The notes under the pieces: generated by a model
Databases searched by the model: none
Seen by the model: the letters and a program-made list of their open reading frames with translations, nothing else
What the model was told of the DNA's origin: nothing
In this document: piece by piece, positions 30,574 through 47,840 of the stretch
Numbering within the stretch: the first letter of the stretch is position 1
How the letters are laid out: every line of letters begins with the position of its first letter
Source: an uncultured Lachnospiraceae bacterium
GTDB taxonomy: Bacteria > Bacillota > Clostridia > Lachnospirales > Lachnospiraceae
NCBI GenBank assembly: GCA_934317845.1
Contig: CAKRES010000005.1
Coordinates: 51,988 to 115,987 of the forward strand
DNA length: 64,000 bases
Reading direction: 5' to 3'
Position numbers and translations under genes: made by a program

Positions 30574-31209
30574 TTACATATATGGGTTCTCTGCCCGTTC
30601 TATCTCCATCGTCGTTGTTGGTCCATGTCCCGGACATACTTTTACATAATCCCCGATATCAGCATATTTTACCCGGATGGAATGTAACAATGCCTTGGCA
30701 TCTCCGCCCGGAAAATCCGTTCTTCCCACGCTTCCTGCAAACAGCGTATCCCCGGAAAAAAGCACCTCATCCTCGATCGCATAAAAGCTCATGCCGCCCG
30801 GTGTATGTCCTGGTGTATGAATACAGCGGAAATGTGCTCCTGCAAACTCCAGTTTATCTCCATCATGCAAAAATTCATCTGCATTGACCGTACATGGTCT
30901 TCCAAAAGTTTCACTCAAATTCTGCTCTGTGCTCTGTAATGTCTCCCGCTCTTCATAACAGGCATAGGTTTTTAAGGAGTGAAAAGACTCCTTCAATGCT
31001 GCCACACCATCAATGTGATCATAGTGCCCATGTGTCAATAAAATGGCAACCGGACGCATTCCGTTATTCTCTAATACATCCCGGATCAGATACCCTTCTG
31101 CCCCCGGATCGATCACAACTGCTTCCTTGGTATCCTTATTGCATAACAAATAGCAGTTGGTTCCTAAATTACCTACCTGTTCTGTAAGAAGCATCATGTG
31201 TTGTCTCAT
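30574..31209 (-). CDS. MBL-fold metallo-hydrolase
   Basis: THGHYDH motif, GHTPG; start moved to MRQHMM (AAAGGAG RBS), 16 nt after the relA stop. Confidence 0.8.
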   Translation of the reverse strand: MRQHMMLLTEQVGNLGTNCYLLCNKDTKEAVVIDPGAEGYLIRDVLENNGMRPVAILLTHGHYDHIDGVAALKESFHSLKTYACYEERETLQSTEQNLSETFGRPCTVNADEFLHDGDKLEFAGAHFRCIHTPGHTPGGMSFYAIEDEVLFSGDTLFAGSVGRTDFPGGDAKALLHSIRVKYADIGDYVKVCPGHGPTTTMEIERAENPYM

Positions 31210-31225
31210 AACAAACTCCTTTCCA

Positions 31226-33532
31226 TCAGCCTGTTGTTCGTTCAATATCAATGATCCCATCCAGAGAACGAAGCTTTGTGATCAGACTGTTTAATTCTGA
31301 TGTACCACTTGTTTCAAAGGTAATGGAATACGTAGATTTTCCCTGTTTACCATTTCTGGCATTCAACGAAATGACATCAATCCCCCGCTCTGTAAATACC
31401 TTCGTGATATTCATGAGCAGATTCTGCTGCGTATACGCATAAAGCGTGATCTCAGTTTCAAATCGTTCTCCGTTTTGATCCTGCTCTTTCTTATCCCATT
31501 CCGCCTCGATCAGACGCTGCCGGTCCATCTCATCCATTGCAAGCAGATTAACACAATCTGTCCGGTGCAGGGAAATACCACGGCCTCTGGTAATAAAGCC
31601 CACGATCTCATCTCCCGGAACCGGGTTGCAGCAGCGGCTGAAACGAACCGAAACATCATGAAGTCCTCTGACCACAATGCTGTTTTTCCGGCTGCCCTGT
31701 ACCTTTTTCGGTTGTGCCGACGGAGCACCAAGCTCCTCTAAAATCTCCTCGTTGCTGACCAGCTTTGGATGCTCTTTCTCGTATTCCTCCATGAGCTTAT
31801 TCATGACCTGGCCTTCTTTTAATCCACCGTGTCCGATGGCCGCCAGTGCAGAGTCCCAGTCATGAAAACCATACTTGATCTGTACTCTTTCCTTGTACTG
31901 TGGCTGAAGATACTTGGAAAGTTCTAAGCCCTTTGTCTTGCAGTATTCATGCAACAGTTCTTTTCCGCGTACAATATTTTCTTCTTTAAATTCTTTTTTA
32001 AACCACTGGTTGATCTTATTCTTTGCCTGTGAACTCTTTACGATCTTTAACCAATCACGACTTGGTCCCTTGGCATTCTGAGAGGTCACAATCTCCACCC
32101 GGTCACCATTTTGCAGGATATAATCGATCGGCACCTGCTGTCCGTTGACTCTGGCACCTACCATTTTATTTCCTACCGCACTGTGAATACTATATGCAAA
32201 ATCGACTGTTGTGGAACCATTTGGCAGGTTCTTCACATCACCATCCGGAGTAAAGCAATAGACCTGCTCAGCATAAAGATCCAGATCAGTCTTTACAAAG
32301 CTCAAAAACTCATGATTGCTCTCGGCTTCCTGCTGCCACTCTAAGATCTGGCGCAGCCAGCTTAACTTCTCCTCCTCCTGATCCTTGGTCGTACCGGTTA
32401 AATTCTCTTTGTATTTCCAATGAGCAGCAATACCGTACTCTGCCGTGCGGTGCATTTCATAAGTCCGGATCTGAATCTCAAACGGCTGTCCGTTATGTCC
32501 GATCAATGTCGTATGCAGTGACTGGTACATATTAGACTTTGGCATTGCGATATAATCCTTAAACCGCCCCGGAATCGGAGTATAATTCTCATGGATCACA
32601 CCCAGTGCCGCATAGCAGTCCTTGACCGTTTCCACCTTGATACGCACCGCAAACAGATCATAGATCTGATCCAGTGTTTTGTGCTGGTTGCGCATTTTCT
32701 TATAAATGCTGAAATAATGCTTGACACGCCCATCCACTTCCGCATCAATGCCTGCTTCCTTCATCTGTTTACTTACTTCCGATACGATCGTACGAATAAA
32801 GTCATCACGTTCATTTTTGCGCAATGCGATCTTATCATCCAGATCCTTGTACTCTTCCGGATGCAGATATTTTAAGGAAATATCATCAAGTTCGATCTTA
32901 ACTTTAGAAATACCAAGACGGTGTGCGATCGGAGAATAGATCTCCATTGTTTCCCTTGCCTTTTCAATCTGCTTTTCCGGTTTCATATACTGAAGCGTAC
33001 GCAGATTGTGCAGACGATCCGCCAGTTTTATGATAATGACACGGATATCCTTTGCCATTGCCAAAAACATTTTTCTTAAATTCTCAGCCTGAATATCATC
33101 CTTGGTGTTCGCAAAATTCAGTTGTGTCAACTTTGTGACACCATCTACCAAAAGAGCAATCTCCTCATTAAACTCCTGCGCAAGTTCCTCTCTGGTCATC
33201 ACGGTATCTTCCACGACATCATGCAGGATACCCGCCACGATCGTTTCTTTATCAAGCTCCAGCTCTGCCAAAATGATCGCTACGCAAAGCGGATGAATGA
33301 TATATGGTTCTCCGGATTTCCGTCTCTGCCCTTCATGCGCCTTTTTGGCAATATGATAGGCTTTCTCGATCATGCTGATATCTGTATTCGGATGATACAT
33401 TCTCACACTATTGATCAAACGCTGATAAAGTTCCTCCGGATCTGTAAAATCAGCAGGCGTACTGATGTCCTTTTCTATATGTTTTCCGTCTAATTCCAGA
33501 CTGCTTCTTCCAAAGCTCGTTGGTTCTTCCAT
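31226..33532 (-). CDS. relA: bifunctional (p)ppGpp synthetase/hydrolase Rel
   Basis: HD hydrolase (HDVVEDT), synthetase, TGS and ACT regions; 768 aa. Confidence 0.92.
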   Translation of the reverse strand: MEEPTSFGRSSLELDGKHIEKDISTPADFTDPEELYQRLINSVRMYHPNTDISMIEKAYHIAKKAHEGQRRKSGEPYIIHPLCVAIILAELELDKETIVAGILHDVVEDTVMTREELAQEFNEEIALLVDGVTKLTQLNFANTKDDIQAENLRKMFLAMAKDIRVIIIKLADRLHNLRTLQYMKPEKQIEKARETMEIYSPIAHRLGISKVKIELDDISLKYLHPEEYKDLDDKIALRKNERDDFIRTIVSEVSKQMKEAGIDAEVDGRVKHYFSIYKKMRNQHKTLDQIYDLFAVRIKVETVKDCYAALGVIHENYTPIPGRFKDYIAMPKSNMYQSLHTTLIGHNGQPFEIQIRTYEMHRTAEYGIAAHWKYKENLTGTTKDQEEEKLSWLRQILEWQQEAESNHEFLSFVKTDLDLYAEQVYCFTPDGDVKNLPNGSTTVDFAYSIHSAVGNKMVGARVNGQQVPIDYILQNGDRVEIVTSQNAKGPSRDWLKIVKSSQAKNKINQWFKKEFKEENIVRGKELLHEYCKTKGLELSKYLQPQYKERVQIKYGFHDWDSALAAIGHGGLKEGQVMNKLMEEYEKEHPKLVSNEEILEELGAPSAQPKKVQGSRKNSIVVRGLHDVSVRFSRCCNPVPGDEIVGFITRGRGISLHRTDCVNLLAMDEMDRQRLIEAEWDKKEQDQNGERFETEITLYAYTQQNLLMNITKVFTERGIDVISLNARNGKQGKSTYSITFETSGTSELNSLITKLRSLDGIIDIERTTG

Positions 33533-33567
33533 CCTATCACCTCGCTGCTTTTATTCTCTGTTTTCTT

Positions 33568-34092
33568 TTATTTGCCCGGATAAGAAATAACAGAAGCAAC
33601 GTCATATCCTTTTAAGCGTTCTCTTCCTTTCAATCCTGCCAGCTCCATCAAAAAGATTACCTTGACTACCTTTCCACCTAACTCTTCGACCAGCTTGATC
33701 GCTGCTTCGATCGTACCTCCGGTTGCAATAAGATCATCCACCAATACTACTTTCTGTCCCGGCTTGATAGAGTCCTTATGCATCTCGATCGTTGCCTGTC
33801 CGTATTCCAGATCATAGGTTGCTTCCACCGTCTCACATGGCAGCTTTCCCTTTTTACGGATCGGTACAAATGGCTTGTTGCAGCTATAAGCGATCGGTAC
33901 ACCAAAAATAAATCCTCTGGATTCCGTTCCTGCTACGACATCGTACTCCACGTTATCTAACAGATGCTTCATCTCGTCAATAGCAAGATGCAATCCCTCT
34001 GCATCGGAAAGTACCGTTGTGATATCGCGAAACATAATTCCTTTTTCCGGAAAATCCGGTATGGTTCTCACGTAATCTTCCACTTTTTTCAT
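33568..34092 (-). CDS. apt: adenine phosphoribosyltransferase
   Basis: PRTase motif VVLVDDLIATGGT, 174 aa; classic apt-relA linkage. Confidence 0.92.
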   Translation of the reverse strand: MKKVEDYVRTIPDFPEKGIMFRDITTVLSDAEGLHLAIDEMKHLLDNVEYDVVAGTESRGFIFGVPIAYSCNKPFVPIRKKGKLPCETVEATYDLEYGQATIEMHKDSIKPGQKVVLVDDLIATGGTIEAAIKLVEELGGKVVKVIFLMELAGLKGRERLKGYDVASVISYPGK

Positions 34093-34174
34093 GTTCGTTC
34101 CTCTTTTCTATCGAAATTCTAAACATCCTATTCTATTTTAACAGATGAAAAGATTTTTTCAATGTGTTTCTCCA

Positions 34175-35974
34175 TTATTCTTCATATTTCGCACTGATTA
34201 GTTTTAATTCCACGGAAACATTTCCCATATATTCATTTAACGTCGGCTGATACAAAATGGAAACCGGAAGCATCAGTCGCCTGCCAGATGCCTCTGCTTC
34301 TTTTATCCGGCGAACAACCGGCTCAGGAAATGTCTCAAACAGAGCAAATGGTTCCGCCCCAAAATAAACCGCGTTCACGTGCTTTCCGGTTGGTGTAAGC
34401 AGATTTAACCGCAGTACATTCTGCCGTTTTCCTACTACCTTCACAGTAGTCAGTGTCATATGTTTTTCTGCAAACAAGGCTCTGGAATTCCCATTTCCCG
34501 TCGGTTCCAGCAAAGAAAGCTGTTTTACGAAAGCTTCCCCGATATATTCTACCGGCATTTTCAGATCGATCACATATTTTCTTGCAAGATCTTCCTCAGA
34601 AAGATTTGCGCTTTCATTCAGTCGTTTCCGAAGCAGGGGAAGTTTCGCCTCTTCCAACGTAAAGCCTGCTGCCATTTTATGTCCTCCTACCTTTAAGAAA
34701 CAGTCTTTGTTCTCCATCAGTGCTGCAAACATATCATATTCCGGAATAGAACGTCCGGATCCCTTGACAATTCCCTTTTCCTTTGTATTCGTCAAAAGGA
34801 GCGTCGGTTTTCCAGTATGTTCTCTTACACGTCCTGCCACAATTCCTGCAATGCTTTCATGGCAGTCAGGCAAATGCAATACCAGGACTGCATCCTGCCG
34901 GTACAACTCACTGTCCGCTATGTGGATTGCCAGCGTCTCATTCTTCTTTGACATCTCCTGCCGGAGCTCATTCATTCTTTTTAACTGCTGTGCCCGATGT
35001 TCCGCCTTTTTCTCATCCGTCTCCAACAACAGTTTCAGCCCCCACTTGGCAGACGAAAGCCGCCCCATGGCATTTAAGCACGGACCGAGGGTAAACCCAA
35101 AGCTGTAAGCATTGATGCGTTCCGGCTCCAGCTGATTTACTTCGATCAAAGCAAGCAGCCCAGGCTCTAACGTGCGTTCCCTCACCTTTTTTTGCAGCAT
35201 GGAAATTCCCCGTTTTACAATATCACGATTTTCCTTTTGCAACACCATGACATCACAGACCGTTGCCATAGCAAGATAAGGATACAACCAGTCAAGCTCT
35301 TGCGCTTCTCTTCCCATCGCCACATAAAGCTGCTTCATCACTTTAAAGGCAACTACTGCCCCGCAAATTTCCACAAACGGGTATCCACAGCCCGGCTGTT
35401 TAGGATCTACGATCGCATCAGCATCCGGAAGCTCCTGCTGTGCTTCATGGTGATCTGTGACAATCACTGTCATCTGAAGCTTCTTCGCCAGTGCGATCTC
35501 CTCTACTGCAGCAATTCCATTGTCACAGGTAAGGATCGTATCCACGCCTTCCTCCTGTGCATTTTTGATCAGCTCTGCATTTAACCCATATCCATCCCTG
35601 ATCCGGTGCGGGATCACGTAATCTACCTGTGATGCATCCTTTCCCAAACCGCGAAGCAGCTCCTGCAAACAGGTATAAAGTACATAATTACTGCAGATAC
35701 CATCTACATCATAATCAGAAATAATGCGGATACGTGCTCCCTCACATAATTTCTCCCGGAGGATGTCTACCGCTTTTTGCATGTCCTTTAACAAATGATC
35801 CTCTGTCGCTTCTTTCGTCCTCATTCCGAGATACTGTGCCATCTGCTCATAAGTGGTAAGATCACGGTTTCGCATGATCCGAACCAGTACAGGGTCTACC
35901 TTTAGTTGTTCTGCCAGCGCATGAAAATCCGCCGCTTTATTAAATACTGTCCATATTTCCTGCATTTTAATCAC
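34175..35974 (-). CDS. recJ: single-stranded-DNA-specific exonuclease RecJ
   Basis: DHH motifs (ISDYDVDG, VTDHH) and DHHA1 domain, 599 aa; upstream of apt-relA as in Bacillus. Confidence 0.88.
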   Translation of the reverse strand: MIKMQEIWTVFNKAADFHALAEQLKVDPVLVRIMRNRDLTTYEQMAQYLGMRTKEATEDHLLKDMQKAVDILREKLCEGARIRIISDYDVDGICSNYVLYTCLQELLRGLGKDASQVDYVIPHRIRDGYGLNAELIKNAQEEGVDTILTCDNGIAAVEEIALAKKLQMTVIVTDHHEAQQELPDADAIVDPKQPGCGYPFVEICGAVVAFKVMKQLYVAMGREAQELDWLYPYLAMATVCDVMVLQKENRDIVKRGISMLQKKVRERTLEPGLLALIEVNQLEPERINAYSFGFTLGPCLNAMGRLSSAKWGLKLLLETDEKKAEHRAQQLKRMNELRQEMSKKNETLAIHIADSELYRQDAVLVLHLPDCHESIAGIVAGRVREHTGKPTLLLTNTKEKGIVKGSGRSIPEYDMFAALMENKDCFLKVGGHKMAAGFTLEEAKLPLLRKRLNESANLSEEDLARKYVIDLKMPVEYIGEAFVKQLSLLEPTGNGNSRALFAEKHMTLTTVKVVGKRQNVLRLNLLTPTGKHVNAVYFGAEPFALFETFPEPVVRRIKEAEASGRRLMLPVSILYQPTLNEYMGNVSVELKLISAKYEE

Positions 35975-36063
35975 TCCGTATCATCCGCCGTTTTTGGCCG
36001 GCTTATAAAAAAGGGAGTTCCATCAATATTGACTGGAACTCCCTGATCTATCCCTTTACTTCC

Positions 36064-38373
36064 TTATTTGCGTTTCTTTTTTCCGCCTTTTTTCTTAGAA
36101 GAGGATTTTTTTGCAGAAGCGGATGGTTTGGCAGCACTCTGTGCTTCCTTACCTGCCTTTGCTTTGGCTTTTGCCTCAGCCTGACGCTCTAATTTTGCCT
36201 TTGCAGCTTCTTCTGCTTTCTTCACACCTTTTCTCTTAAACAGATACCATACCGGACCGGTAATACATACAGAGGAGTATGCACCACACACAATACCTGT
36301 CATCAGCGCAACAGCAAACTCATTTAATGATTTTGCTCCCATCAGCCATAACATGAATACCATGATAAAGGTGGTAACAGAAGTATTGATCGTTCTTGTA
36401 AAGGTCTGTGAAATACTGGTATTTACAATCGTATCTAAGCCAACCTTAGCAATGCTCATGCTTCTTAAGTTCTCACGGATACGGTCGAAAATGATGATCG
36501 TCGCATTGATCGAATAACCTACGATCGTCAGCATACATGCGATAAAGGTTGCACCTACAACCAACTGTCCTACAGAGTACAGACAGAATACCACTAATAC
36601 ATCATGGCACAGCGCCAATACTGCAGAACATCCAAACTTCCAGTCTTTGAATCGGAATGCAATATAGATCAGCATCAGGATCGTTGCGATCACGATGGCG
36701 ATCACGGCATCTCTTCTTGTCTCACTACTGATCGTTGCAGAGATATTCTCTGTCTCGATCGCATTTTTCAGCTCGATCGCCTTATCCTTTTCTAAGGCAT
36801 CCTGCACGGCGTCACGCTGTGCTACACTTAACTGCTCTGTCTTTACAATGATCTGGTTGGCATTCTTAACTGCCTGTACCTGAACCGTACCTTCTGAAAT
36901 ATCTGCAGCCTTGGCAACTACCGGTTTTACGATTTTTTCTGCTTCCTTGACTGTCATATCATTCTTCAGTGTCAGTGTCATCGTCGTACCACCGACGAAG
37001 TCCAGATCATAGTTCAATGTACTTCCTGTCTTTTTCTTGTTCATTGGAAGTGCCACAAGACCTACCACGATCACTAACAGGGAAATTACGATACAGAACT
37101 TGCTGAGTTTTACATAGTTAAATACCTTGGTCTCTTTTGCTTTACCATATAATGCCGGTTTCTGTACCCCTACGCTGTAGAAAGAATTCAATAGCCACTT
37201 GGTGATAACTAATGCGGTAAACATGGAAAGGATAATACTAAGTGCTAAGGTCTGTGCAAATCCACGTACTGTACCAGAGCCCTTTAAGTATAATACTGCT
37301 GCTGCGATCAAGGTGGTAATGTTACCATCTAAAATAGCAGATAACGCTTTATTGTATCCGGAATTTAATGCAGTCTTTACAGACTTGCCATCACGGATCT
37401 CCTCTTTGATACGGGTAAAGATGATGACGTTGGCATCCACCGCCATACCAATACCTAAGATCACACCTGCCATACCAGGAAGTGTCAAAGTAACATTAAA
37501 TCCATTTAATGCCAGTAAGGTTAATAAGATGTATGCGATCAGTGCTAATGATGCAATGAATCCAGGCCAGAAGTATACTACGATCATGAATACACAAATG
37601 ATCACAAGACCAATGGCACCTGCTTTTAAACTGGTAGTAACGGCCTCAGAACCTAACTGTGCTGCTACAACCTGGGAACTCATCTCTTCCAGCTCTAATG
37701 GAAGTGCACCGATACGGATGTAGGTAGCTAAAGATTTTGCTTCATCCAAGCTCTCCTGTCCGGTGATCACACATTTACCATCTGTGATCGCTGCCTGAAC
37801 AGTTGGGGCACTGATAACTTCACCATCATAAATGATGTAGATCTGTTTGCCGATGTTTGCACTTGTAGCATCACCGAACTTCTTTGCGCCATCTTTGTTA
37901 AACTCTAATTCTACGACATTTTCTTTCACACCGGTGGTGCTGTCAGTCTGTGTATTGGCCTCCGCACTGGTAATATCAGATCCGGTCACTACCTGTGTAC
38001 CATCTGCTAACTGGAATACCAAAGAACCCGGTTTACCAAGATCCTCTAATACTTTGTTTGCATCTGTCTCGCCCGGAATCTCCACCTGAATACGGTTGCT
38101 TCCTACCTTATATACGTTTGACTCAGTGCTGTACTCCTGTACACGCTCCTGGATCTTCGCAATCGTATCATTGATCTCGGTATCTGTCGGATTGTCCTCT
38201 TTTACCTGATAGGTAATGCTGACACCACCTGCCAGATCCAATCCCAGTTTAATGTGGGAAGCTGTTCCTTTGTGCTGCTTGCCAAGTCCCTGAAGAATAA
38301 TGAAACCTGCAAACACAGAAAGGATGATGAAGCATAAAATGATCAATATGCTTTTCGTTTTCTGATTCTTCAT
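36064..38373 (-). CDS. secDF: protein translocase subunit SecDF (fused) with Lys/Ala-rich C-terminal tail
   Basis: 12 TM segments in two SecD/SecF modules, 769 aa; last ~57 aa are low-complexity K/A-rich. Confidence 0.88.
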   Translation of the reverse strand: MKNQKTKSILIILCFIILSVFAGFIILQGLGKQHKGTASHIKLGLDLAGGVSITYQVKEDNPTDTEINDTIAKIQERVQEYSTESNVYKVGSNRIQVEIPGETDANKVLEDLGKPGSLVFQLADGTQVVTGSDITSAEANTQTDSTTGVKENVVELEFNKDGAKKFGDATSANIGKQIYIIYDGEVISAPTVQAAITDGKCVITGQESLDEAKSLATYIRIGALPLELEEMSSQVVAAQLGSEAVTTSLKAGAIGLVIICVFMIVVYFWPGFIASLALIAYILLTLLALNGFNVTLTLPGMAGVILGIGMAVDANVIIFTRIKEEIRDGKSVKTALNSGYNKALSAILDGNITTLIAAAVLYLKGSGTVRGFAQTLALSIILSMFTALVITKWLLNSFYSVGVQKPALYGKAKETKVFNYVKLSKFCIVISLLVIVVGLVALPMNKKKTGSTLNYDLDFVGGTTMTLTLKNDMTVKEAEKIVKPVVAKAADISEGTVQVQAVKNANQIIVKTEQLSVAQRDAVQDALEKDKAIELKNAIETENISATISSETRRDAVIAIVIATILMLIYIAFRFKDWKFGCSAVLALCHDVLVVFCLYSVGQLVVGATFIACMLTIVGYSINATIIIFDRIRENLRSMSIAKVGLDTIVNTSISQTFTRTINTSVTTFIMVFMLWLMGAKSLNEFAVALMTGIVCGAYSSVCITGPVWYLFKRKGVKKAEEAAKAKLERQAEAKAKAKAGKEAQSAAKPSASAKKSSSKKKGGKKKRK

Positions 38374-38375
38374 GT

Positions 38376-39818
38376 TTAACTCTCCTTTTCTTCCGCCAAA
38401 GCGGCTTTAATCATGATTGCACATTCTACCCGCTTGCGTTCCAGCTCGCATCCTACTTCATAGGTATCATTGATATCCCCATGAAAATTGTAGGAATTTG
38501 CGGCACAGCCGCCGCTGCAGTAAAATCTCGCAAAGCATTTTCTACATTTATCCTTTGCATATACATTGCAAAGTTTAAATTCATCCCGGATAGCTTCTTT
38601 GGTGATGCCGTCATCAACATTTCCCATTAAGAAGTCCTCTTCTCCCACAAACTGATGACACGGATACAGATCTCCCCAAGGTGTCACAGCCAGATATTCT
38701 GTGCCTGATCCACATCCTGACAATCGTTTGGCAACACACGGTCCCTGATTGAGATCGATCATAAAGTGGAAGAAATTAAATCCATTCCCCTCTTTCTGCC
38801 GTGCTACCATCTCTGCCGCCAATTTGTCGTATTCCTCTTTTAACTGGTCAAGATCTTCTTCGCGTATCGCATAATCTGCTTCCGGACCGGCCACCACCGG
38901 TTCCACAGAGATCTGCTTAAACCCAAGATCTGCCAGATGTAAAACATCCTTTGAAAAATCCAGATTGTGGTGGGTAAATGTTCCACGCACATAATAATTG
39001 GTCTGATTTCTTAACGCAGCAAATTCCTGAAACTTTGGAAGGATGATGTCATAGCTGCTCTTTCCGTTTCTGGTCGGACGCATGTAGTCATTGATCTCTT
39101 TTCTTCCATCAATGGATAATACTACATTTGCCATTTCGCGGTTGGCAAATTCCATCATTTCTTCATTTAGTAAAATTCCATTCGTCGTCAAGGTAAATCT
39201 GAAATTTTTGTCATGTTCTTTTTCAATGGACCGTCCATATTCTACAAGCTGTTTGACTACTTCCCAGTTCATCGTCGGCTCTCCGCCAAAGAAATCCACT
39301 TCGAGGTTTCTGCGGTTACCAGAGTTGGCAACTAAGAAATCAAGTGCCTTTTTTCCCACTTCAAAGGACATGAGTGCCCGTCTTCCATGGTACTCCCCTT
39401 CTTCCGCAAAGCAGTAGCGGCAGCCCAGATTACAATCATGGGCAATGTGAAGGCAAAGTGCTTTTACAACAGTCTTACGTTTCTTAAAATCAATGACGTA
39501 GTCCCGGTACTCATCCGGAGCAAATAACAGGCCCTGCTCCTTGAGTTCCTCAATCTCCTCCATCGCTTCTTCAACATCTGCACGCGGATACGCCTCACTG
39601 CAGGCATCCACGATCTGCTGTCTGACTTTCTCCGGAAGTTTCACCTGACAACTGTCACAGTTTTTTGCACAAGATGCATCCTCTGACTCACAGAGCGTTT
39701 CGTATGCCTCACTGTAACGAGCCAGTACATCGTATACCACATCATCAACTACATGAACGGAGCCACTGCAAACATCAAGAACAATATTGTATCCATTATT
39801 CTTATACTGATGTATCAT
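38376..39818 (-). CDS. scfB: SCIFF peptide radical SAM maturase (SPASM domain)
   Basis: CNLGCRYCF radical SAM cluster motif, C-terminal Cys-rich SPASM region, encoded immediately downstream of a SCIFF precursor gene. Confidence 0.85.
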   Translation of the reverse strand: MIHQYKNNGYNIVLDVCSGSVHVVDDVVYDVLARYSEAYETLCESEDASCAKNCDSCQVKLPEKVRQQIVDACSEAYPRADVEEAMEEIEELKEQGLLFAPDEYRDYVIDFKKRKTVVKALCLHIAHDCNLGCRYCFAEEGEYHGRRALMSFEVGKKALDFLVANSGNRRNLEVDFFGGEPTMNWEVVKQLVEYGRSIEKEHDKNFRFTLTTNGILLNEEMMEFANREMANVVLSIDGRKEINDYMRPTRNGKSSYDIILPKFQEFAALRNQTNYYVRGTFTHHNLDFSKDVLHLADLGFKQISVEPVVAGPEADYAIREEDLDQLKEEYDKLAAEMVARQKEGNGFNFFHFMIDLNQGPCVAKRLSGCGSGTEYLAVTPWGDLYPCHQFVGEEDFLMGNVDDGITKEAIRDEFKLCNVYAKDKCRKCFARFYCSGGCAANSYNFHGDINDTYEVGCELERKRVECAIMIKAALAEEKES

Positions 39819-39840
39819 CTTTTACTCCTTATATTCCAAA

Positions 39841-39875
39841 CAATATAAAAGGCTATTCAATGCTATGAATAGCCT
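39841..39875 (-). terminator. hairpin attenuator/terminator between scfA and scfB
   Basis: 10-bp perfect stem AGGCTATTCA/TGAATAGCCT with 6-nt loop, followed on the minus strand by TTTTATATTGTTT. Confidence 0.55.
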
Positions 39876-39902
39876 TTCTCTTACATCACATTTCGTATGC
39901 AA

Positions 39903-40046
39903 TTACTTCTGAGTCTCGCAAGTCTGGTTACCAACGGTACATGAAGTCTTGCATGCAGACTGGCAGGAAGTCTGGCACTCGCCGCATCCGCCTTTTGCCA
40001 TCGTATTCTTTAACGTCTTGGTTGTTAATGTCTTAATGCGTTTCAT
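39903..40046 (-). CDS. scfA: SCIFF ribosomal peptide precursor (six cysteines in forty-five residues)
   Basis: 47-aa ORF absent from the >=60-aa track: MKRIKTLTTKTLKNTMAKGGCGECQTSCQSACKTSCTVGNQTCETQK; GGAGG RBS 7 nt upstream; extended -10 promoter TGcTATAAT at 40067-40075. Confidence 0.85.
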   Translation of the reverse strand: MKRIKTLTTKTLKNTMAKGGCGECQTSCQSACKTSCTVGNQTCETQK

Positions 40047-40146
40047 ATTTGCGCCTCCTTAATTCTAACTTCCAACATTATAGCACATCAAAAAATATCT
40101 GAAAAGTATTTTTTTACAATCTTTGCGTCACCTTTGCAATTAGAAT

Positions 40147-41052
40147 TTACTGATGCAGAATCGTATCATATAACAATGCCATACGGATCCACATGCCATT
40201 ATGTGCCTGTTCAAAATATTTTGCCCGTGGATCGTCGTCTACCTCCGGTGCGATCTCTGCATTCCTTGGCAATGGATGCAACAGGATCGTATCTTTTGAA
40301 AAACGGCTCATGACATTTTTATCAACAATAAACTCCTTCGTTGCCAGATCACTCTCCGTAAACCGCTCCAGCTGGGTACGGGTGCTGTAGATCACATCAA
40401 TATCCTCCGGCAGATCTTCAAAACTGCTGCATGGAATATACGTCGCACCAAAATGGTGCAGATACTCTACATATTCCTTTGGCAGAGCAAAATGTGGCGT
40501 AGAAAGTCCGTAGATGATCACATGGTCAAATACCGTAAGCAGTTTGATCAGAGAATGCACCGTACGTCCAAACAAAAGATCACCCACCATTGCTACAGAT
40601 ATATGGTCAAATTTTTTGCCGCATTTGTGCATCGTATAAACATCCAGCAATGACTGGGTCGGGTGGGAACCACTTCCACTCCCTGCGTTAAAGATCGGCA
40701 CCGTGGAAACCGCAGCAGCACGCTGTGCCGCATCCTTATCGAAATGACGCATGACAATTCCGTCCGTATAGCCACTGATCACCCGGATCGTATCCTCTAA
40801 TGTTTCTCCCTTGGTCGCAGAGGATGCCTCTTTCGCATTCTCCGTGCTGATATTCTTAGCTCCCAGACGTAAGATTGCCGATTCAAAGGAAAGTCGGGTA
40901 CGGGTGCTTGGCTCAAAGAACATCGTAGCGATCACTTTTCCTTTTAAGCTTTCCTCATATTTTTCCGGATGGGTATTCATATCATCTGCAATCGAAAACA
41001 AATGCTCCAGATACGCACGATCAAATTGTTCACATGAAATAATATGCTTCAT
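40147..41052 (-). CDS. pyrB: aspartate carbamoyltransferase catalytic subunit
   Basis: STRTR, HPTQ and HPLPR motifs; 301 aa; no pyrI or other pyr genes adjacent. Confidence 0.8.
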   Translation of the reverse strand: MKHIISCEQFDRAYLEHLFSIADDMNTHPEKYEESLKGKVIATMFFEPSTRTRLSFESAILRLGAKNISTENAKEASSATKGETLEDTIRVISGYTDGIVMRHFDKDAAQRAAAVSTVPIFNAGSGSGSHPTQSLLDVYTMHKCGKKFDHISVAMVGDLLFGRTVHSLIKLLTVFDHVIIYGLSTPHFALPKEYVEYLHHFGATYIPCSSFEDLPEDIDVIYSTRTQLERFTESDLATKEFIVDKNVMSRFSKDTILLHPLPRNAEIAPEVDDDPRAKYFEQAHNGMWIRMALLYDTILHQ

Positions 41053-41168
41053 TTTTCTTCTCCTTCGCTCTATATAAATGTTTTTATCATAATTTTCCGG
41101 ATCGTCTCATACAGTATAGCAGATGCTCCACAAAGACAGCAACACCAGCCACGACCGGGAGGTATATT

Positions 41169-41528
41169 ATGACACAAAAAGGTAAACTATTAGAAACTCT
41201 CAAATGCCTATTGCTTTCCTATGCAGCTACCATTATTTTTCTCCTGCTGCTCACCTTTTTGGTGTACCAGTTTCAATTAACCTCTGCGATCACCAACATT
41301 GCCATCATCTGCATCTATATCCTTACCTGTTTCTTTGGCGCATTCCGGCTCGGAAAACAGGTGAAACAGCAACGTTTTCTCTGGGGACTGATCCTCGGGG
41401 CATTTTATATTGCCTTGCTTCTTCTGATCTCTCTGCTTGTCAACCACACCATTGCTCTGTCTACGACCAATCTTACGGTTTTTGTTCTATGCCTGGTAAG
41501 TGGTATGCTTGGCGGTATGACCAGCTAA
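41169..41528 (+). CDS. small integral membrane protein (hypothetical)
   Basis: 119 aa, 3-4 predicted TM helices; divergent from pyrB. Confidence 0.5.
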   Translation: MTQKGKLLETLKCLLLSYAATIIFLLLLTFLVYQFQLTSAITNIAIICIYILTCFFGAFRLGKQVKQQRFLWGLILGAFYIALLLLISLLVNHTIALSTTNLTVFVLCLVSGMLGGMTS

Positions 41529-41560
41529 GAAAAAGACGCTGACAAAAATGTCAACGTCCC
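41529..41560 (-). terminator. bidirectional intrinsic terminator (yajC / plus-strand membrane protein)
   Basis: GACGTTGACA-TTTT-TGTCAGCGTC hairpin followed by TTTTTCTT on the minus strand. Confidence 0.5.
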
Positions 41561-41565
41561 CACTT

Positions 41566-41907
41566 TTACCGCTCCATGGAAATAGTTGTACCATCCGGCT
41601 TCTCTACCGTCTGAATTGCAGTCTTTCTCATTGGAATGCGACAGTTCTTGTTGCTTCCAAATTCTACGACAACCACATCATCCTGAATATCAATGACAAC
41701 ACCATAAAAACCACTGGTTGTGATAATGCTGTCTCCCTTTTCCAATGCATTGTTCATCTCCTGCATAGACTGCTGCTGTTTCTTCTGTGGACGGATCGCC
41801 ATAAAATAAAACATAGCAACAATGATCACAATATAGATCACGATCCAGCCGATCGTCATTCCACTGCCGCCTGCACTCTTTGCTGCTGTCAAATACATAT
41901 TTAACAT
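41566..41907 (-). CDS. yajC: preprotein translocase subunit YajC
   Basis: single TM then YajC block GDSIITTSGFYGVVIDI; own TTGACG-17-TAAAAT promoter at 41934-41962. Confidence 0.85.
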   Translation of the reverse strand: MLNMYLTAAKSAGGSGMTIGWIVIYIVIIVAMFYFMAIRPQKKQQQSMQEMNNALEKGDSIITTSGFYGVVIDIQDDVVVVEFGSNKNCRIPMRKTAIQTVEKPDGTTISMER

Positions 41908-42006
41908 ATTACTTTCTCCTTTATATCATAATCTAGGGTAAATTTTACTTTTTTTCCACCCAAACGTCAAGTACTTCTTCCTTCATTTCACCATTTCTAC
42001 ACAAGC

Positions 42007-43158
42007 TTACTTTTGCTGCATTCCCATAAGCTTCTGCTTCTTGTACTCCTGATAGCGATTTTCGCGGATCGCCTCCCGGATTTCCTCCATCATGTGATTA
42101 TAAAAATAAAGATTATGGAGTACACAAAGCCGCATGCCAAGCATCTCTTTTGCCTTTAACAGATGGCGGATATAGGCTCTGCTGTAATGCTTACACGCCG
42201 GACACTGACATCCTTCTTCGATCGGACGCTCATCCAGTTCATATTTGGCATTAAAGAGATTGCGTTTTCCTTCATTGGTATAAACATGGCCATGTCGTCC
42301 GTTACGGCTTGGATATACACAGTCAAAGAAATCCACACCTCGCTCTACCGCTTCTAAAATATTGGCCGGAGTTCCCACTCCCATTAAATACGTTGGTTTG
42401 TTTTTCGGCAAATGCGGCACAACCTCATCTAAAATGCGATACATTTCCTCGTGCGTTTCCCCAACAGCCAGTCCTCCTATGGCATATCCATCCATGTCCA
42501 TGGCAGCGATCGTCTTTGCATGATCCACACGAATATCTTCAAACACACCGCCCTGATTAATACCAAAGAGCAGCTGCTCTTTATTGATCGTTTCCGGAAG
42601 GGAATTCAACCGTGCCATCTCTGTTTTACATCGTGCCAGCCATCTGGTTGTACGATCCACAGAATTTCTGATGTAGGTACGATCGGCCCGGCTTGAGGGA
42701 CACTCATCAAATGCCATCGCGATCGTAGATCCCAGATGTGACTGGATCTGCATACTTTCCTCCGGTCCCATGAAAATGCGGCGTCCATCCACATGCGACT
42801 GAAAGGTAACGCCCTCTTCTTTGATCTTTCTGAGTCCCGCCAATGAAAACACTTGAAATCCACCGGAATCCGTAAGGATCGGACGATCCCATACCATAAA
42901 TTTATGCAGTCCCCCCATTTTATAAACAACTTCATCTCCCGGACGCACATGCAGGTGGTAAGTGTTGGAAAGCTCCACCTGTGTTCCAATCTCCTTTAGA
43001 TCCATCGTAGAAACCGCTCCTTTGATCGCACCGATCGTTCCTACGTTCATAAATACAGGAGTCTGTATCGTACCATGCACCGTTTCCATCACTGCACTTT
43101 TGGCGCGCCCATCCTGTCCTACAATTTTATATGTCACTTGCTTCACTATCCTTTCCAA
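42007..43158 (-). CDS. tgt: queuine tRNA-ribosyltransferase
   Basis: TPVFMNVGT, LTDSGGFQ, zinc site CxCxxC...H; 383 aa. Confidence 0.9.
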   Translation of the reverse strand: MERIVKQVTYKIVGQDGRAKSAVMETVHGTIQTPVFMNVGTIGAIKGAVSTMDLKEIGTQVELSNTYHLHVRPGDEVVYKMGGLHKFMVWDRPILTDSGGFQVFSLAGLRKIKEEGVTFQSHVDGRRIFMGPEESMQIQSHLGSTIAMAFDECPSSRADRTYIRNSVDRTTRWLARCKTEMARLNSLPETINKEQLLFGINQGGVFEDIRVDHAKTIAAMDMDGYAIGGLAVGETHEEMYRILDEVVPHLPKNKPTYLMGVGTPANILEAVERGVDFFDCVYPSRNGRHGHVYTNEGKRNLFNAKYELDERPIEEGCQCPACKHYSRAYIRHLLKAKEMLGMRLCVLHNLYFYNHMMEEIREAIRENRYQEYKKQKLMGMQQK

Positions 43159-44251
43159 AAAAATGCCTGATTCGATCCATCCGGCTCGTCATGCTCTTTA
43201 ACACGGCATCCAGCACAGTTATAGCTGTCATTGCCTCTACCACAACAACCGCCCGCGGCACAATGACAGGATCGTGTCTTCCCTTGATGGAAATCTCGAT
43301 GTTATCTCCTTCACGATTCATCGTCTGCTGCGTTGCCGCAATGGATGGGGTTGCCTTAAATGCAGCTCTGATCCTGATCATGGAACCATCACTCATACCG
43401 CCCAAAATACCTCCGGCATGATTCGTATGTTTTAAAACATGACCTGTCTCATCCTGATAAAAGCCATCATTATCTTCACTTCCGCTAAGCTTCGCTGCAG
43501 CCATCCCTTCGCCCACTTCAAAGCCCTTTACTGCTCCGATGGAAACAATCGCCTTGGCAAGTTCAGCGTCCAATTTGTCAAATACTGTCTCGCCGATACC
43601 CGGCATCACACCGTCCACGACACATTCCACAATACCGCCAACGGAATCCTTTTCCTGCATTTTCTGATCGAGCAGTGCCTGTGCTTTTTGCGCTGCTTCC
43701 TGATCCGGCATACAAAGTGGATTGTTATCACGCTCCGCTAGTGTAACATTCGTTTCGTTTATCGATACGTCCCCGATGGCACTGGTATAGGCGCACACCG
43801 TAATCCCAAGTTCTGAAAGTACCTTCGCTGCGATCGCTCCGGCCGCCACTCTTGCGATCGTTTCCCTGCCGGAGGAGCGTCCGCCACCCCGGTAGTCGCG
43901 GAAACCATATTTTTGATCAAATGTATAATCCGCATGTCCCGGACGATAATAGGATGCGATCTCGCTGTAATCCTTTGATCTCTGATCTTCATTGTAAACG
44001 ATCATTGAGATTGGAGTTCCGGTTGTTCTTCCCTCAAACACGCCGGATAAGATCTCTACCCGGTCGGATTCCTTGCGCATTGTAGTATATTTGCTCTGAC
44101 CGGGTTTTCTGCGGTCTAAATATATCTGAATGTCTTCTTCGGTGAGTGCAAGTCCTGCCGGACACCCGTCTACAACTACTCCTATTCCTTTCCCATGAGA
44201 TTCTCCCCATGTTGTGATCCGAAAGATCGTTCCAAATGATGAACCAGCCAT
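43127..44251 (-). CDS. aroC: chorismate synthase
   Basis: N-terminal [15 protein letters not shown] signature, 374 aa. Confidence 0.92.
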
Positions 44252-44321
44252 GCGTTTTCTCCTTCTTTCCTCTGCTGTCTGTGCCTATGGCAAACAATAG
44301 TAACAGTCTATCAAAACCCAT

Positions 44322-44367
44322 TAAAAAAAGCAAGTACCGCTCTTTCTCAAAGAACCATACCTGCTTT
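44322..44367 (-). terminator. intrinsic terminator after the ABC/GldG-like operon
   Basis: 9-bp stem AAGCAGGTA/TACTTGCTT (one G-U), 21-nt loop, then TTTTTTTAAT on the minus strand. Confidence 0.45.
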
Positions 44368-44383
44368 TATACTTTTTAATGAC

Positions 44384-45919
44384 CTAGGAACGTTTCCGTA
44401 CCACGATCACAACAATTCCTAACACGATCAAAAGTACCGGAATACCAATCAGACCGATTGCCGTGATCATCTTTGATGCAAAGGAAGTAAATACCGCATG
44501 CGTATTCGTAACAGTCGGAGATTTGACTGCAATCTTACTTTCCTGTGCAGTCATATAATTGACTGCATTACAGTAAAAGCTTGAGTTCGCACCGGATACC
44601 ACCGAATCAATATCTGATACATCCATAGAGGAAGAACCGGATACAAATACTACACCTTCGTCATCCTTGTTGGTTACTATCTGCGCAATGGCAAATGGAC
44701 CATCAATATCATCCTTTGTTTTTTCTCCACTGCCAGAAGAAACATCTACCTTGGAGAAGGAATCATTTGATGTAACCAAAAGATCTGTTACTGTGTAGCC
44801 ATCTACCTTTTCTGCGCTAAGTCCCTTGCTGACCGGAGCTAAGATATGCATGCTCTTGGAACTGATTGGCTGGGTAATATCATGAGAAGCTAAGGTTGGC
44901 AGCAGGTAGGTTGGATAATTACCCATGTAATAACCGGAACCATTTTCTACCACAATACCTTCATTGACTTTCACACCATATTTGAGCAATAATGCATTTA
45001 ACTTCTCGTAGGTCTGATTTGGATTCAGAGTGACAAAAAGTTTTCCACCATTGTCCATATATTCTTCGATATTCTCCACCAGACTATCGGAAAGATCACT
45101 GGTTGGAGAATTAATGATCAATAATTTACAATCCTTTGGAATACCTCCGGATACAACAACATCTAACGATTCAATGTCATAGTTGTCATTGCTTAATCCA
45201 CTTTGGAAATTGTCACTTAAATCTGTTTCACCCTGACCGGTCAGTGTGTATACTTTGGTCGCTTCTCCCGTCATACAATAATCAATGGCCGAAACCAGTT
45301 TTGATTCCAGATTGACTGTAGTAGATGCACTTCCATCCTCGCCATAATCATAGGAAACATAATCACTACTGCTAACATAACGACTTCTGTCATTTCCTAC
45401 CACGATCATATCATTCTCTGCTGCGGTTGAACCATCCGTAATGTATTTCGATGCAAAGTCCGGATAAAGCTCTAAGTCTTTATATTCTACGTTTACATAT
45501 TTGCTGGCATTTTCAAACTGATCTAAGATATTAGTGTAAACACTGTTGGTATTTCCTTTTGCATTTAAGAAGTAGACCGTGATCTTCGTATCCTTCTTCA
45601 AGGTATCCAACATCTTCTCCGTTGCATCTGAAAGTGTATAAAGCTTGGAAGAAGTCAGATCAATGCTCCAGTTTTTAGATGATAAAAATACATTCAGGAT
45701 GATCACTGCTGCGATCACTACTACAACTGCTACTGTGGAAAGGATGCCATGACGCACTTTGCGCTGTGATATGGTAAGATCCTTTTTCTCTTTTTTGTCT
45801 TTCTTTTCCTCTACAACTTCCACCACAGGTTCTGTCTGGGTAGATTTCGTGTCTTTCGTTATTTCATTTTCATTATTCTGTTCTTTGTTCGCCACAATCT
45901 TACCCTCCTTTAATTCCAT
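44384..45919 (-). CDS. GldG-like ABC-transporter auxiliary component
   Basis: N-terminal cytoplasmic K/E-rich stretch, TM, large extracytoplasmic domain, C-terminal TM; last gene of an ATPase-permease-auxiliary trio. Confidence 0.6.
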   Translation of the reverse strand: MELKEGKIVANKEQNNENEITKDTKSTQTEPVVEVVEEKKDKKEKKDLTISQRKVRHGILSTVAVVVVIAAVIILNVFLSSKNWSIDLTSSKLYTLSDATEKMLDTLKKDTKITVYFLNAKGNTNSVYTNILDQFENASKYVNVEYKDLELYPDFASKYITDGSTAAENDMIVVGNDRSRYVSSSDYVSYDYGEDGSASTTVNLESKLVSAIDYCMTGEATKVYTLTGQGETDLSDNFQSGLSNDNYDIESLDVVVSGGIPKDCKLLIINSPTSDLSDSLVENIEEYMDNGGKLFVTLNPNQTYEKLNALLLKYGVKVNEGIVVENGSGYYMGNYPTYLLPTLASHDITQPISSKSMHILAPVSKGLSAEKVDGYTVTDLLVTSNDSFSKVDVSSGSGEKTKDDIDGPFAIAQIVTNKDDEGVVFVSGSSSMDVSDIDSVVSGANSSFYCNAVNYMTAQESKIAVKSPTVTNTHAVFTSFASKMITAIGLIGIPVLLIVLGIVVIVVRKRS

Positions 45920-46779
45920 CTTTTCTTTTCAATCATGTGTACTGTTAAAAACAGAAATACACCTGCAAATGACAGATAGTATACCACTGCACTGACATCT
46001 AAAAGTCCATTGATGAAGGAATTCGTGTAACGCTCCATCATGGAGAACCAGTCGATCACTTTGGAAAGCCCATCATCATACATGGATGGTTTGATAAAAT
46101 ATACTAATGCGATTGCGCCTGCTCCAACGATACCAGAAACCACAGAAGGCAGCACCTTTTTTGTGGAAACATAAAACAGTATCATCACTGCAACAACTAC
46201 ACAGGCATAAAAGATAATGCTGTATCTTGCTCTTCCCGGAAGATTGTTTGAAATGTTATTCAGGAAAAAAGAAGCAAAGATCAATACAGCCGTCACAACC
46301 GCAGATACGATCTGATTCTCCGTCAAGGAAGAGATAAAGAAACCAACTGCGATCAGAGCAGCTCCTACTAAAAAGTAACCAAACATTCCCAATGCAACCG
46401 TCGTCCACTCTACATCACCATAAAAGTGAAGCATAAACGGATAGAGCATGATGATCACCAATGCGATCACAAATAAACTAAGTACCGCAAGATATTTTCC
46501 GATCACAATCTTTATTACGCTGATCGGAGAAGTCAAAAGAAGCTGATCTGTTTTTTGTTTGCGCTCCTCAGACCAAAGGCGCATCGTGATGATCGGCACT
46601 AACAGTCCTAACCATGTACAGGTACTTGGAAGTACATATCCGGTAAAATCTGTGAGGGAATATCCCACACAATAATATACAAAGTAAATTCCAACTAATA
46701 CCACAAATGCAGCCAGAAATAAATAGGCAATCATAGAGGTGAAATAACCTTGCATTTCTTTTTTATAAATCGCTAACAT
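45910..46779 (-). CDS. ABC-2 family transporter permease
   Basis: six hydrophobic helices, 289 aa, translationally coupled to the ATPase (ATGA overlap). Confidence 0.7.
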   Translation of the reverse strand: MLAIYKKEMQGYFTSMIAYLFLAAFVVLVGIYFVYYCVGYSLTDFTGYVLPSTCTWLGLLVPIITMRLWSEERKQKTDQLLLTSPISVIKIVIGKYLAVLSLFVIALVIIMLYPFMLHFYGDVEWTTVALGMFGYFLVGAALIAVGFFISSLTENQIVSAVVTAVLIFASFFLNNISNNLPGRARYSIIFYACVVVAVMILFYVSTKKVLPSVVSGIVGAGAIALVYFIKPSMYDDGLSKVIDWFSMMERYTNSFINGLLDVSAVVYYLSFAGVFLFLTVHMIEKKRWN

Positions 46780-47840
46780 TACTCTTCCTCCTTTTCTTCT
46801 GAGGCTGCATCTGTCTCTGCTGTCTCTTCTGTAGTCTCAGCAACCGGTGTCTGCTCGTCTGCATCCTGCTTAGATGCTTTCTCATCCTCGTCATTGGTGA
46901 GCTTTAAGAAGACTTCCTCTAACGATAAGCTCTCTCTTGAAATACGTCGAACCGGCATTTTCTTTTCTGCAAACAGATAGAACAGGTCATCGTTCTTATC
47001 CTCATCTGTTTTCAGCAGCACATGTACTTCTAATACATCGTCGATCTGCTCACCAAAATCGAAACTATCCACATAATCGATATTCTGCAATACTGCTTCA
47101 ATCTGCTCTTTTGTTCCTTTGATCTCCATTGACACATGACTCTGATTAGAGTACTTCTTGGACAGATTCTCCGGTGTATCCTCTGCTACTACAACTCCCT
47201 TGTTGATAATGATGATGTGATCACACACCTCACTAACCTCTGATAAAATATGGGAGCTTAAAATAACGGTATGTTCTTTTGATAATCCACGGATCAATTC
47301 CCGGATCTCTACCACCTGACTTGGATCTAAACCTACTGTCGGCTCATCTAAGATTAAAATAGGAGGATTGCCAAGCAGTGCTGCTGCAAGGCCCACTCTT
47401 TGGCGGTATCCTTTGGAAAGCTTACTGATAATACGCCGGGCGCGATCCGTGATCTTGGTGATCTTCATCACCCGTTTTACCTCTTCCGGACGCTCTTTTT
47501 TCGCCACACCTTTTAATTCTGCCACAAACTTCAGATAAGACAGTACCGTCATATCCGTATAAAGCGGCGGAATCTCCGGCAGATAACCAATGGCACGTTT
47601 TGCCTCTTTTGGCTCTGTCATAATATCATGGCCGTCAATCTTTACAGAACCACTCGTGGCACTGATGTATCCGGTAATGATATTCATTGTGGTGGACTTA
47701 CCAGCTCCATTCGGACCGAGCAGACCAACTACCTGGCCTTCTTCCACATGTAAGCTAAGACCTTTGACCGCTTCAAACTTGCCATAGTTCTTAACTAAGT
47801 CTTCTACTACAATCATAATATCCTCCTTTTTGCCCTGCAT
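46779..47840 (-). CDS. ABC transporter ATP-binding protein with acidic C-terminal tail
   Basis: Walker A GPNGAGKST, LSKGYRQR signature, ILILDEP; extra ~45-aa D/E-rich tail. Confidence 0.85.
   Translation of the reverse strand: MQGKKEDIMIVVEDLVKNYGKFEAVKGLSLHVEEGQVVGLLGPNGAGKSTTMNIITGYISATSGSVKIDGHDIMTEPKEAKRAIGYLPEIPPLYTDMTVLSYLKFVAELKGVAKKERPEEVKRVMKITKITDRARRIISKLSKGYRQRVGLAAALLGNPPILILDEPTVGLDPSQVVEIRELIRGLSKEHTVILSSHILSEVSEVCDHIIIINKGVVVAEDTPENLSKKYSNQSHVSMEIKGTKEQIEAVLQNIDYVDSFDFGEQIDDVLEVHVLLKTDEDKNDDLFYLFAEKKMPVRRISRESLSLEEVFLKLTNDEDEKASKQDADEQTPVAETTEETAETDAASEEKEEE

Follow-up and report, generated by a model that had tools for sequence, protein, structure and literature searches.

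The 64,000-nucleotide (nt) stretch of uncultured Lachnospiraceae DNA analysed here (contig CAKRES010000005.1; hereafter the window, to whose numbering all positions refer) carries on its minus strand a two-gene system for a peptide made on ribosomes and modified after translation (RiPP), in which scfA almost certainly encodes a SCIFF precursor peptide and scfB its cognate radical SAM/SPASM maturase, ScfB, as judged from profile matches, gene order, and the pattern of codon variation. The locus is a genuine but ordinary SCIFF pair, and the literature already covers the family, the chemistry of its thioether, and a suggested part in quorum sensing; what is added here is an architecture shared by gut Lachnospiraceae and Acetivibrio thermocellus, in which a strong promoter, an invariant peptide gene, a hairpin-bearing spacer, and the maturase gene follow one another inside the tgt-yajC-secDF cluster, with the maturase gene running straight into secDF in the gut Lachnospiraceae. 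The explanation as a whole, namely a canonical SCIFF system expressed through this promoter and hairpin, is considered likely, with its separate parts standing at different strengths.

SCIFF peptides were defined bioinformatically in 2011 and the class has since been renamed the ranthipeptides; a Cys32-Thr37 thioether is formed in vitro by the maturases Tte1186 (acting on Tte1186a) and CteB (acting on CteA), and heterologous expression gave a Cys32-Thr34 S-C(gamma) link (PMC8326336, PMC10114670, PMC8172795). Knock-outs in Clostridium beijerinckii and C. ljungdahlii altered sporulation and agr expression and were interpreted in terms of quorum sensing (PMC8102284), reviews argue against an antimicrobial role (PMC8326336), and a recent pangenome preprint again reports that species from several clostridial orders each have a single conserved SCIFF cluster. 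The statement in the original prediction that the product and function of the family are unknown is thus only partly current, given the thioether demonstrated in Tte1186a and CteA and the suggestion that the peptides act in quorum sensing (PMC8326336, PMC8102284). Nearly all Clostridia have a SCIFF/ScfB pair, one to a genome; such pairs are caught automatically by the models of NCBI and Pfam and include an enzyme whose structure has been solved. The quorum-sensing-like knock-out phenotype in two clostridia is the only functional claim found in the searchable papers. No paper linking SCIFF or ranthipeptides with SecD or a terminator was found in the searchable literature, which excludes the primary papers of the family (Haft & Basu 2011; Bruender 2016; Grove 2017; Hudson 2019).

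The precursor gene, scfA (39903-40046, minus strand), encodes a 47-residue peptide, MKRIKTLTTKTLKNTMAKGGCGECQTSCQSACKTSCTVGNQTCETQK, and the translation recovered from these coordinates is exactly the one originally predicted. Residues 1-18/20 form the leader and the core is GGCGECQTSCQSACKTSCTVGNQTCE, within which the six cysteines are C21, C24, C28, C32, C36, and C43. The peptide matches two curated hidden Markov models (HMMs) over its full length, scoring 83.7 bits against both TIGR03973 (E = 6e-24; cut-off 50 bits) and PF13165 (E = 8e-24; cut-off 27 bits), and the earlier identification of a six-cysteine SCIFF peptide, for which the TIGR03973 search had been proposed as a check, is therefore borne out far above the cut-off. 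The sequence also agrees with the SCIFF pattern of six cysteines in ~45 residues with the conserved core GGCGECQTSCQSACKTSCTV(G/A)NQxCE, and it has Cys32, Thr34, and Thr37 at the numbering of the published cross-links.

The locus was compared with 80 species-level loci, nominally Lachnospiraceae, whose ScfB proteins are 68-76% identical to that of the window, and with three Acetivibrio-type loci (A. thermocellus, R. josui, and P. thermosuccinogenes), the distant loci being reached with the CteB sequence as query, a search with the peptide having yielded none but near relatives in the Lachnospiraceae; Clostridium sensu stricto and Thermoanaerobacterales were left out of the comparison, and scfB starts across loci were placed by tblastn coordinates. 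Directly 5' of scfB, scfA was found in 78 of the 80 species loci, whatever gene precedes scfA, and in the remaining two the contig ends too near scfB for its presence to be judged. Across the 79 Lachnospiraceae sequences so available (the 78 loci with scfA and the window itself), the core GGCGECQTSCQSACKTSCTVGNQxCE is invariant but for x, and 78 distinct nucleotide sequences of its 26 codons yield only three peptide sequences. The variable columns number 0, 1, and 25 at the first, second, and third codon positions, respectively, and pairwise comparison of the core gives 99.3% identity over codon positions 1 and 2 but 54% at position 3. This codon-position pattern argues that the open reading frame (ORF) is translated and under purifying selection that is unusually strong on every core residue and reaches beyond the cysteines.

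The maturase gene, scfB (38376-39818, minus strand), encodes a 480-residue protein predicted to form thioethers in the SCIFF peptide, and its ribosome-binding site (RBS), AAGGAG, occupies 39825-39830 on the same strand, 6 nt before the ATG at 39818. A search with TIGR03974, the check proposed for the SPASM-domain radical SAM maturase claimed at these coordinates, gave 800.7 bits against a cut-off of 425, and that claim stands. ScfB scores 575.5 bits with the 'not_ScfB' exception model NF040492, under its cut-off of 855, and reaches the cut-off of no other family of radical SAM peptide maturases, PapB and QhpD included; crystallised CteB (5WGG/5WHY) is matched at E = 8e-187. The radical SAM motif CxxxCxxC is present as C129-NLG-C133-RY-C136 (39434-39411; PF04055, 56 bits), and the SPASM region (38421-38738) contains C425-x2-C428-x5-C434-x3-C438 together with C361, C369, C387, C457, and C466, all of these cysteines, like the radical SAM motif, being invariant in a 47-sequence alignment. 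The SPASM domain scores 65 bits with TIGR04085 (cut-off 27) and 20.5 with the Pfam SPASM model, just below the gathering score of 21.5. The AlphaFold model of ScfB (predicted local distance difference test, pLDDT, 84.7; predicted template modelling score, pTM, 0.85) has an N-terminal domain of three strands followed by helices, as in a RiPP recognition element (RRE), which is interrupted by a low-confidence cysteine-rich insert and has no RRE or PqqD match in Pfam; residues 1-36 of ScfB align with residues 6-41 of CteB. The closest named relative of ScfB, at 84% identity, comes from a metagenome-assembled genome (MAG) of Lachnospira sp., and the 100% identical protein was found only on short metagenome contigs in the European Nucleotide Archive.

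Two peculiarities of ScfB sequences may be recorded beside this assignment. The insert in the predicted leader-binding domain of the window protein is ~26 residues long (residues ~37-62; 39633-39710, minus strand), lies between the first helix and the next conserved helix, falls at a gap opposite CteB residues 41-51, and carries Cys43, Cys50, Cys54, and Cys57 (C-x6-C-x3-C-x2-C). The pattern C-x5-9-C-x3-C-x2-C is common only to the window protein and its nearest relatives (P0002-P0009 and P0016), being absent from two close relatives (a 455-residue protein), from all other Lachnospiraceae matches, and from CteB and its group. Over the insert the pLDDT drops to about 57-62, and below 50 for residues 47-53, values at which the model is uninformative on clustering of the cysteines; a structural zinc site or an extra iron-sulfur or other metal site in the insert is possible. 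Separately, the metagenomic homologues P0015 and P0037 contain internal tandem duplications of 50-90 residues, in the N-terminal domain or the radical SAM segment, which are probably assembly artefacts.

Upstream of scfA lies a sigma-A-type promoter (40077-40105, minus strand) with an A-tract before it, a 10/12 match to the consensus, and the TG of an extended -10 element: the -35 hexamer TTTTCA (40105-40100) is followed, after a 17-nt spacer, by TGcTATAAT (40085-40077), whose end lies 30 nt from the scfA ATG, the distance in related loci being most often 32-35 nt. The scfA RBS, AAGGAGG (40054-40060, minus strand), lies 7 nt before the ATG at 40046. In the original prediction the GGAGG site was correctly recognized and so was the extended -10, albeit at 40067-40075, some 10 nt too low. 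Among the 76 loci with sufficient upstream sequence, an extended -10 (TRTGnTATAAT or TRTGnTATACT), usually preceded by an A-tract, stands 5' of scfA in 74, and GGAGG is found no more than 25 nt from the start codon in 62; TGcTATAAT recurs at the A. thermocellus (CteA) and R. josui loci. As the gene upstream of scfA varies among loci, scfA appears to carry its own conserved strong promoter, and a dedicated promoter of this predicted strength would drive the gene.

The spacer between the scfA stop codon (39903) and the scfB start codon (39818), both genes lying on the same strand, is 84 nt long and contains a stem-loop with a U-rich, interrupted tail (39837-39878, minus strand), which may be a leaky intrinsic terminator or may stabilise the scfA mRNA at its 3' end. 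The hairpin itself (39878-39847) starts ~25 nt after the scfA stop and has 13 pairs, 12 of them Watson-Crick and one G-U, closing a 6-nt loop; the sequence 3' of it is AUAUUGUUUG, in which the U-tract is interrupted. The 10-bp hairpin and T-run previously placed at 39841-39875 are thus confirmed as to the hairpin itself and corrected as to its length, its position, and the continuity of the U-tract. The spacer folds at -23.6 kcal/mol (z = -4.5), a stability reached by none of 200 shuffled sequences. The stem accounts for about -17 kcal/mol, with only four G-C pairs among the 13 and the interrupted U-tract UUUUAUAUUGUUU, and a simple terminator scan accepts it as terminator-like. Since the hairpin sequence occurs only once in the window, its origin as a dispersed repeat resembling repetitive extragenic palindromic elements was rejected, and a scan of 30000-48000 against Rfam (E <= 1) returned no match and hence no known riboswitch, PyrR element, or leader RNA.

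Across the loci compared, every spacer between scfA and scfB measures at least 70 nt (median 109, maximum 280), and the folding z-score of these spacers has a median of -3.7. With the criterion of a single hairpin of -8 kcal/mol or lower followed by a T-rich tail (5-of-8 T), a hairpin was found in 68 of 79 spacers (86%), the corresponding rates being 11% for dinucleotide-shuffled sequences and 29% for the reverse complements; the typical example starts 28 nt after the stop codon and has 11 pairs and a free energy of -15.6 kcal/mol. The stem sequences differ among lineages, which indicates that the structure and not the sequence is conserved. Among the three nearest relatives, the stem AAGGCUAUUC...GAAUAGCCUU forms a conserved island while the rest of the spacer has diverged in length and sequence. 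A hairpin is likewise present in the spacer at all three Acetivibrio-type loci, followed by a U5-U6 tract at those of A. thermocellus and R. josui; that of the CteA locus has a free energy of -15.9 kcal/mol and is followed by U6.

The far end of scfB is joined closely to secDF, a fused gene of 769 codons (36064-38373, minus strand) whose ATG lies 2 nt after the scfB stop codon (TAA AC ATG) and whose RBS lies inside the 3' end of scfB. In the 75 loci from which the distance could be measured, scfB and secDF are a median of 19 nt apart, and no more than 60 nt apart in 66, with several ATGA overlaps. Such short gaps and overlaps suggest that scfB and secDF form one transcription unit 3' of the hairpin, which implies that a RiPP maturase would share its transcript with a housekeeping gene of the translocon.

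A leaky terminator or stem-loop behind the precursor gene is familiar from RiPP systems such as nisA-nisB (nisin) and sboA-albA (subtilosin), where a highly transcribed small gene is followed by a hairpin and the modification genes are reached by limited read-through, leaving the substrate in excess. By the same logic, a sigma-A promoter with an extended -10 would drive scfA from a short 5' untranslated region, and the 13-bp hairpin with its interrupted U-tract would act as a leaky intrinsic terminator, a 3'-end stabiliser, or both; the majority of transcripts would then end as short, stable messages of scfA, the remainder continuing into scfB and secDF, and probably also recJ, with the expected outcome that the substrate peptide is in large excess over the maturase. 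The lysine-rich leader of the peptide (MKRIKTL...) would be bound by the N-terminal RRE-like domain of ScfB, which would cross-link the invariant core by one or more thioethers between cysteine and threonine, from Cys32 to Thr34 or Thr37, by homology to CteA/CteB and Tte1186a/Tte1186. We infer termination and read-through, the peptide-to-enzyme stoichiometry, and the thioether position alike from the arrangement of these elements and from the characterised homologues.

Several features bear on how leaky such a terminator would be. Because not only scfB but also secDF is downstream of the hairpin, it must be leaky if it terminates at all, and its position before both genes would let it set the ratio of peptide to maturase plus SecDF and not that of peptide to enzyme only. 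The distance from the hairpin end to the scfB ATG, 28 nt in the window and at most 30 nt in 14 loci, leaves no room for a separate promoter. The tight scfB-secDF unit, the short hairpin-scfB distance, and the poor U-tracts together favour a leaky terminator and/or stabiliser over a full stop, and the leaky-terminator mechanism is accordingly worded here as the favoured reading, held with moderate confidence. The earlier proposal of attenuation giving an excess of peptide over enzyme gains comparative support from the hairpin-bearing spacer of at least 70 nt and the tight scfB-secDF junction, and was drawn too narrowly in that secDF would be affected too; an excess of peptide mRNA over maturase mRNA appears to be its best-supported form. 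The hairpin, whether deleted or strengthened, would offer a simple handle on the peptide-to-enzyme ratio.

Certain observations count against this account. The AT-rich stem, with its four G-C pairs, and the interrupted U-tract may terminate weakly or not at all, serving mainly in stability or processing; a promoter-like sequence, TTCATA-16-TATATT (9/12; 39869-39842, minus strand), overlaps the hairpin and could transcribe scfB-secDF independently, in a region where 18 promoter-like matches were found against 13.7 +/- 4.3 expected, which is the chance level; and 11 of the 79 loci lack a hairpin meeting the criterion above. The published position of the thioether is itself disputed, being Thr37 in vitro and Thr34 in E. 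coli (PMC8326336).

The alternative that survives best, although it is a good deal less probable than the leaky terminator, is that the hairpin is not a terminator but a protective or processing element of the 3' end: scfA, scfB, and secDF would be transcribed as one RNA, cleavage and a block to exonucleases would leave a long-lived scfA fragment, and the peptide excess would arise from differential mRNA stability instead of attenuation. Such a role would suit the AT-rich stem of the window, the requirement that secDF downstream be transcribed, and the poor U-tracts of most loci, the longest T-run after the hairpin being at most three in 48 of 68 and the tail barely reaching 5-of-8 T in 62 of 68. 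The T-rich tail is nevertheless strand-oriented, as the forward and reverse-complement frequencies given above indicate (86% and 29%), and the hairpins of A. thermocellus and R. josui bear canonical U5-U6 tracts; moreover, termination and stabilisation are not mutually exclusive. An unlikely third arrangement would make the hairpin an efficient terminator of a monocistronic scfA, with scfB-secDF independently regulated from its own promoter at or after the hairpin. The TTCATA-16-TATATT sequence could be such a promoter, and the longer spacers, which reach 280 nt and in four loci extend more than 100 nt beyond the hairpin, could hold one; the match is weak, however, lacking the TG and belonging to a class that occurs at the chance level, the 14 loci with at most 30 nt between hairpin and scfB ATG have no space for it, and the spacers showed no further extended -10 element that is conserved.

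The leaky-terminator reading is best set beside the systems already characterised. The closest is CteA/CteB (thermocellin) of A. thermocellus, in which CteB aligns with the window ScfB over residues 72-472, the CteA core differs from that of the window only in having TVANQS in place of TVGNQT, and the locus presents the same TGcTATAAT promoter, 46-47-residue peptide gene, terminator-like hairpin in the spacer, and maturase gene, with secD and secF nearby. The two nevertheless differ in that CteB is without the ~26-residue, four-cysteine N-terminal insert, the CteA locus spacer is 150 nt compared with 84 nt and the U-tract of the window is weaker, the fused secDF of the window abuts scfB whereas A. 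thermocellus has an HD-domain gene between, and scfA is preceded by pyrB and an inverted DUF3792 gene in the window but by rluD-like and lspA genes in A. thermocellus. Tte1186a/Tte1186 of Caldanaerobacter subterraneus, the first SCIFF pair characterised in vitro, belongs to the same families (TIGR03973/TIGR03974) and its Cys32 and Thr37 are kept in the window peptide, a correspondence drawn from the published numbering; its host is from another order, Thermoanaerobacterales. PapA/PapB (freyrasin) and QhpD share the enzyme fold and chemistry class with the window ScfB, which scores 283 bits with the PapB model NF047865 (cut-off 340) and 262 bits with the QhpD model TIGR03906 (cut-off 453) and is thus a member of neither; their substrates also differ from SCIFF, PapB acting on Cys-X3-Asp repeats and QhpD on a protein subunit. 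Compared with nisA-nisB and sboA-albA, the downstream genes here include the housekeeping secDF and not dedicated export or immunity genes; a hairpin of this kind is not known to have been reported from SCIFF loci.

The surroundings of scfAB are those of a housekeeping cluster. The order queA-tgt-yajC-secD-secF is conserved in many bacteria, including E. coli, and the window keeps the tgt-yajC ... secDF order and strand, the cluster being interrupted by scfAB in Clostridia and further, in the window lineage, by an inverted DUF3792 gene and pyrB. On the minus strand of the window the genes run aroC, tgt, yajC, (DUF3792 on the plus strand), pyrB, scfA, scfB, secDF, and recJ; in related loci recJ, apt, and relA often follow secDF. 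The feature upstream in the cluster is yajC (41566-41907, minus strand; TIGR00739, 81 bits), and between it and pyrB lies the 119-codon gene of a DUF3792 membrane protein (41169-41528, plus strand; PF12670, 100.6 bits). The Acetivibrio-type order is (queA-tgt-yajC-DUF3792)-scfA-scfB-one gene-secD-secF, with the DUF3792 gene co-directional and just 5' of scfA, whereas it is inverted in the window lineage. The closest relatives show yajC, inverted DUF3792, pyrB, PHP, and scfA, or the same without pyrB. From these gene orders, scfAB appears to be an ancient insertion into the widely conserved tgt-yajC-secDF cluster, and the yajC-scfA interval a variable slot.

The same gene order gives rise to an alternative view of what SCIFF does, according to which the modified peptide would serve a housekeeping purpose in the cell envelope or the Sec pathway (YajC-SecDF), co-expressed by read-through with SecDF, and would not be a secreted signal or antibiotic. 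Consistent with this proposal, scfAB lies between yajC and secD or secDF in two orders of Clostridia, scfB and secDF are operonic in Lachnospiraceae, every core residue is invariant, unlike those of diversifying signalling or antimicrobial RiPPs, no protease or exporter gene was found in the loci inspected, and reviews oppose an antimicrobial role (PMC8326336). Complete core conservation and the absence of a protease or exporter gene would be easier to reconcile with a partner inside the cell or in the membrane than with a signal that diffuses. Against it, the gene order may be that of an ancient insertion riding in a conserved cluster, the Acetivibrio-type loci have an extra gene and gaps of 160-290 nt between scfB and secD, and the C. 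beijerinckii knock-outs were interpreted as quorum-sensing effects (PMC8102284). A Sec-pathway role is accordingly regarded as improbable at present, yet the SecDF operon link and the extreme core conservation make it a concrete, testable alternative to quorum sensing. The residual interest of the locus lies in the conserved promoter-peptide-hairpin-maturase-secDF layout, the SecDF/YajC linkage, and the cysteine-rich insert.

The gene immediately upstream of scfA, pyrB, encodes an aspartate carbamoyltransferase (40147-41052, minus strand; TIGR00670, 305 bits) and adjoins scfA in only one of the 80 Lachnospiraceae species loci. Going by this distribution, pyrB is best taken as a lineage-specific insertion between DUF3792 and scfA that is not part of the SCIFF system, and its candidacy as a functional partner of scfA was rejected because the adjacency is lineage-specific. 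The description of the locus in the original prediction as wedged between pyrB and secDF is literally correct but misses its context, which is the tgt-yajC-(DUF3792)-scfA-scfB-secDF cluster. No terminator-like site was found between pyrB and the scfA promoter. That absence, with the shortness of the 47-codon ORF, might suggest that the ORF is a chance one and the hairpin merely the terminator of pyrB, a notion rejected as having next to no probability in view of the HMM E-values (6e-24 and 8e-24), the synteny with scfB in 78 of 80 loci, the 0/1/25 codon-position pattern, and the conserved promoter and RBS that scfA has of its own.

Some minor observations concern the neighbouring genes and the public records. 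In the window pyrB stands alone, other pyr genes not lying beside it, and the scan of 30000-48000 (E <= 1) showed neither a PyrR-binding site nor any other Rfam element upstream of pyrB (41053-41168). Six MAG records in the comparison set (L002, L004, L008, L027, L064, and L076) are labelled Bacteroidales, Bacteroidaceae, Bacteroides thetaiotaomicron, Bulleidia, or Gastranaerophilales and carry typical Lachnospiraceae scfA-scfB-secDF loci, with ScfB identities of 71-75%; binning contamination or mislabelling in the public records is the most likely source of these labels. Lastly, the longest tgt ORF, which begins at a TTG (43158), overlaps the end of aroC by 32 nt (43127-43158, minus strand), whereas the HMM match to tgt starts at residue 10; translation of tgt probably begins at a codon further downstream.

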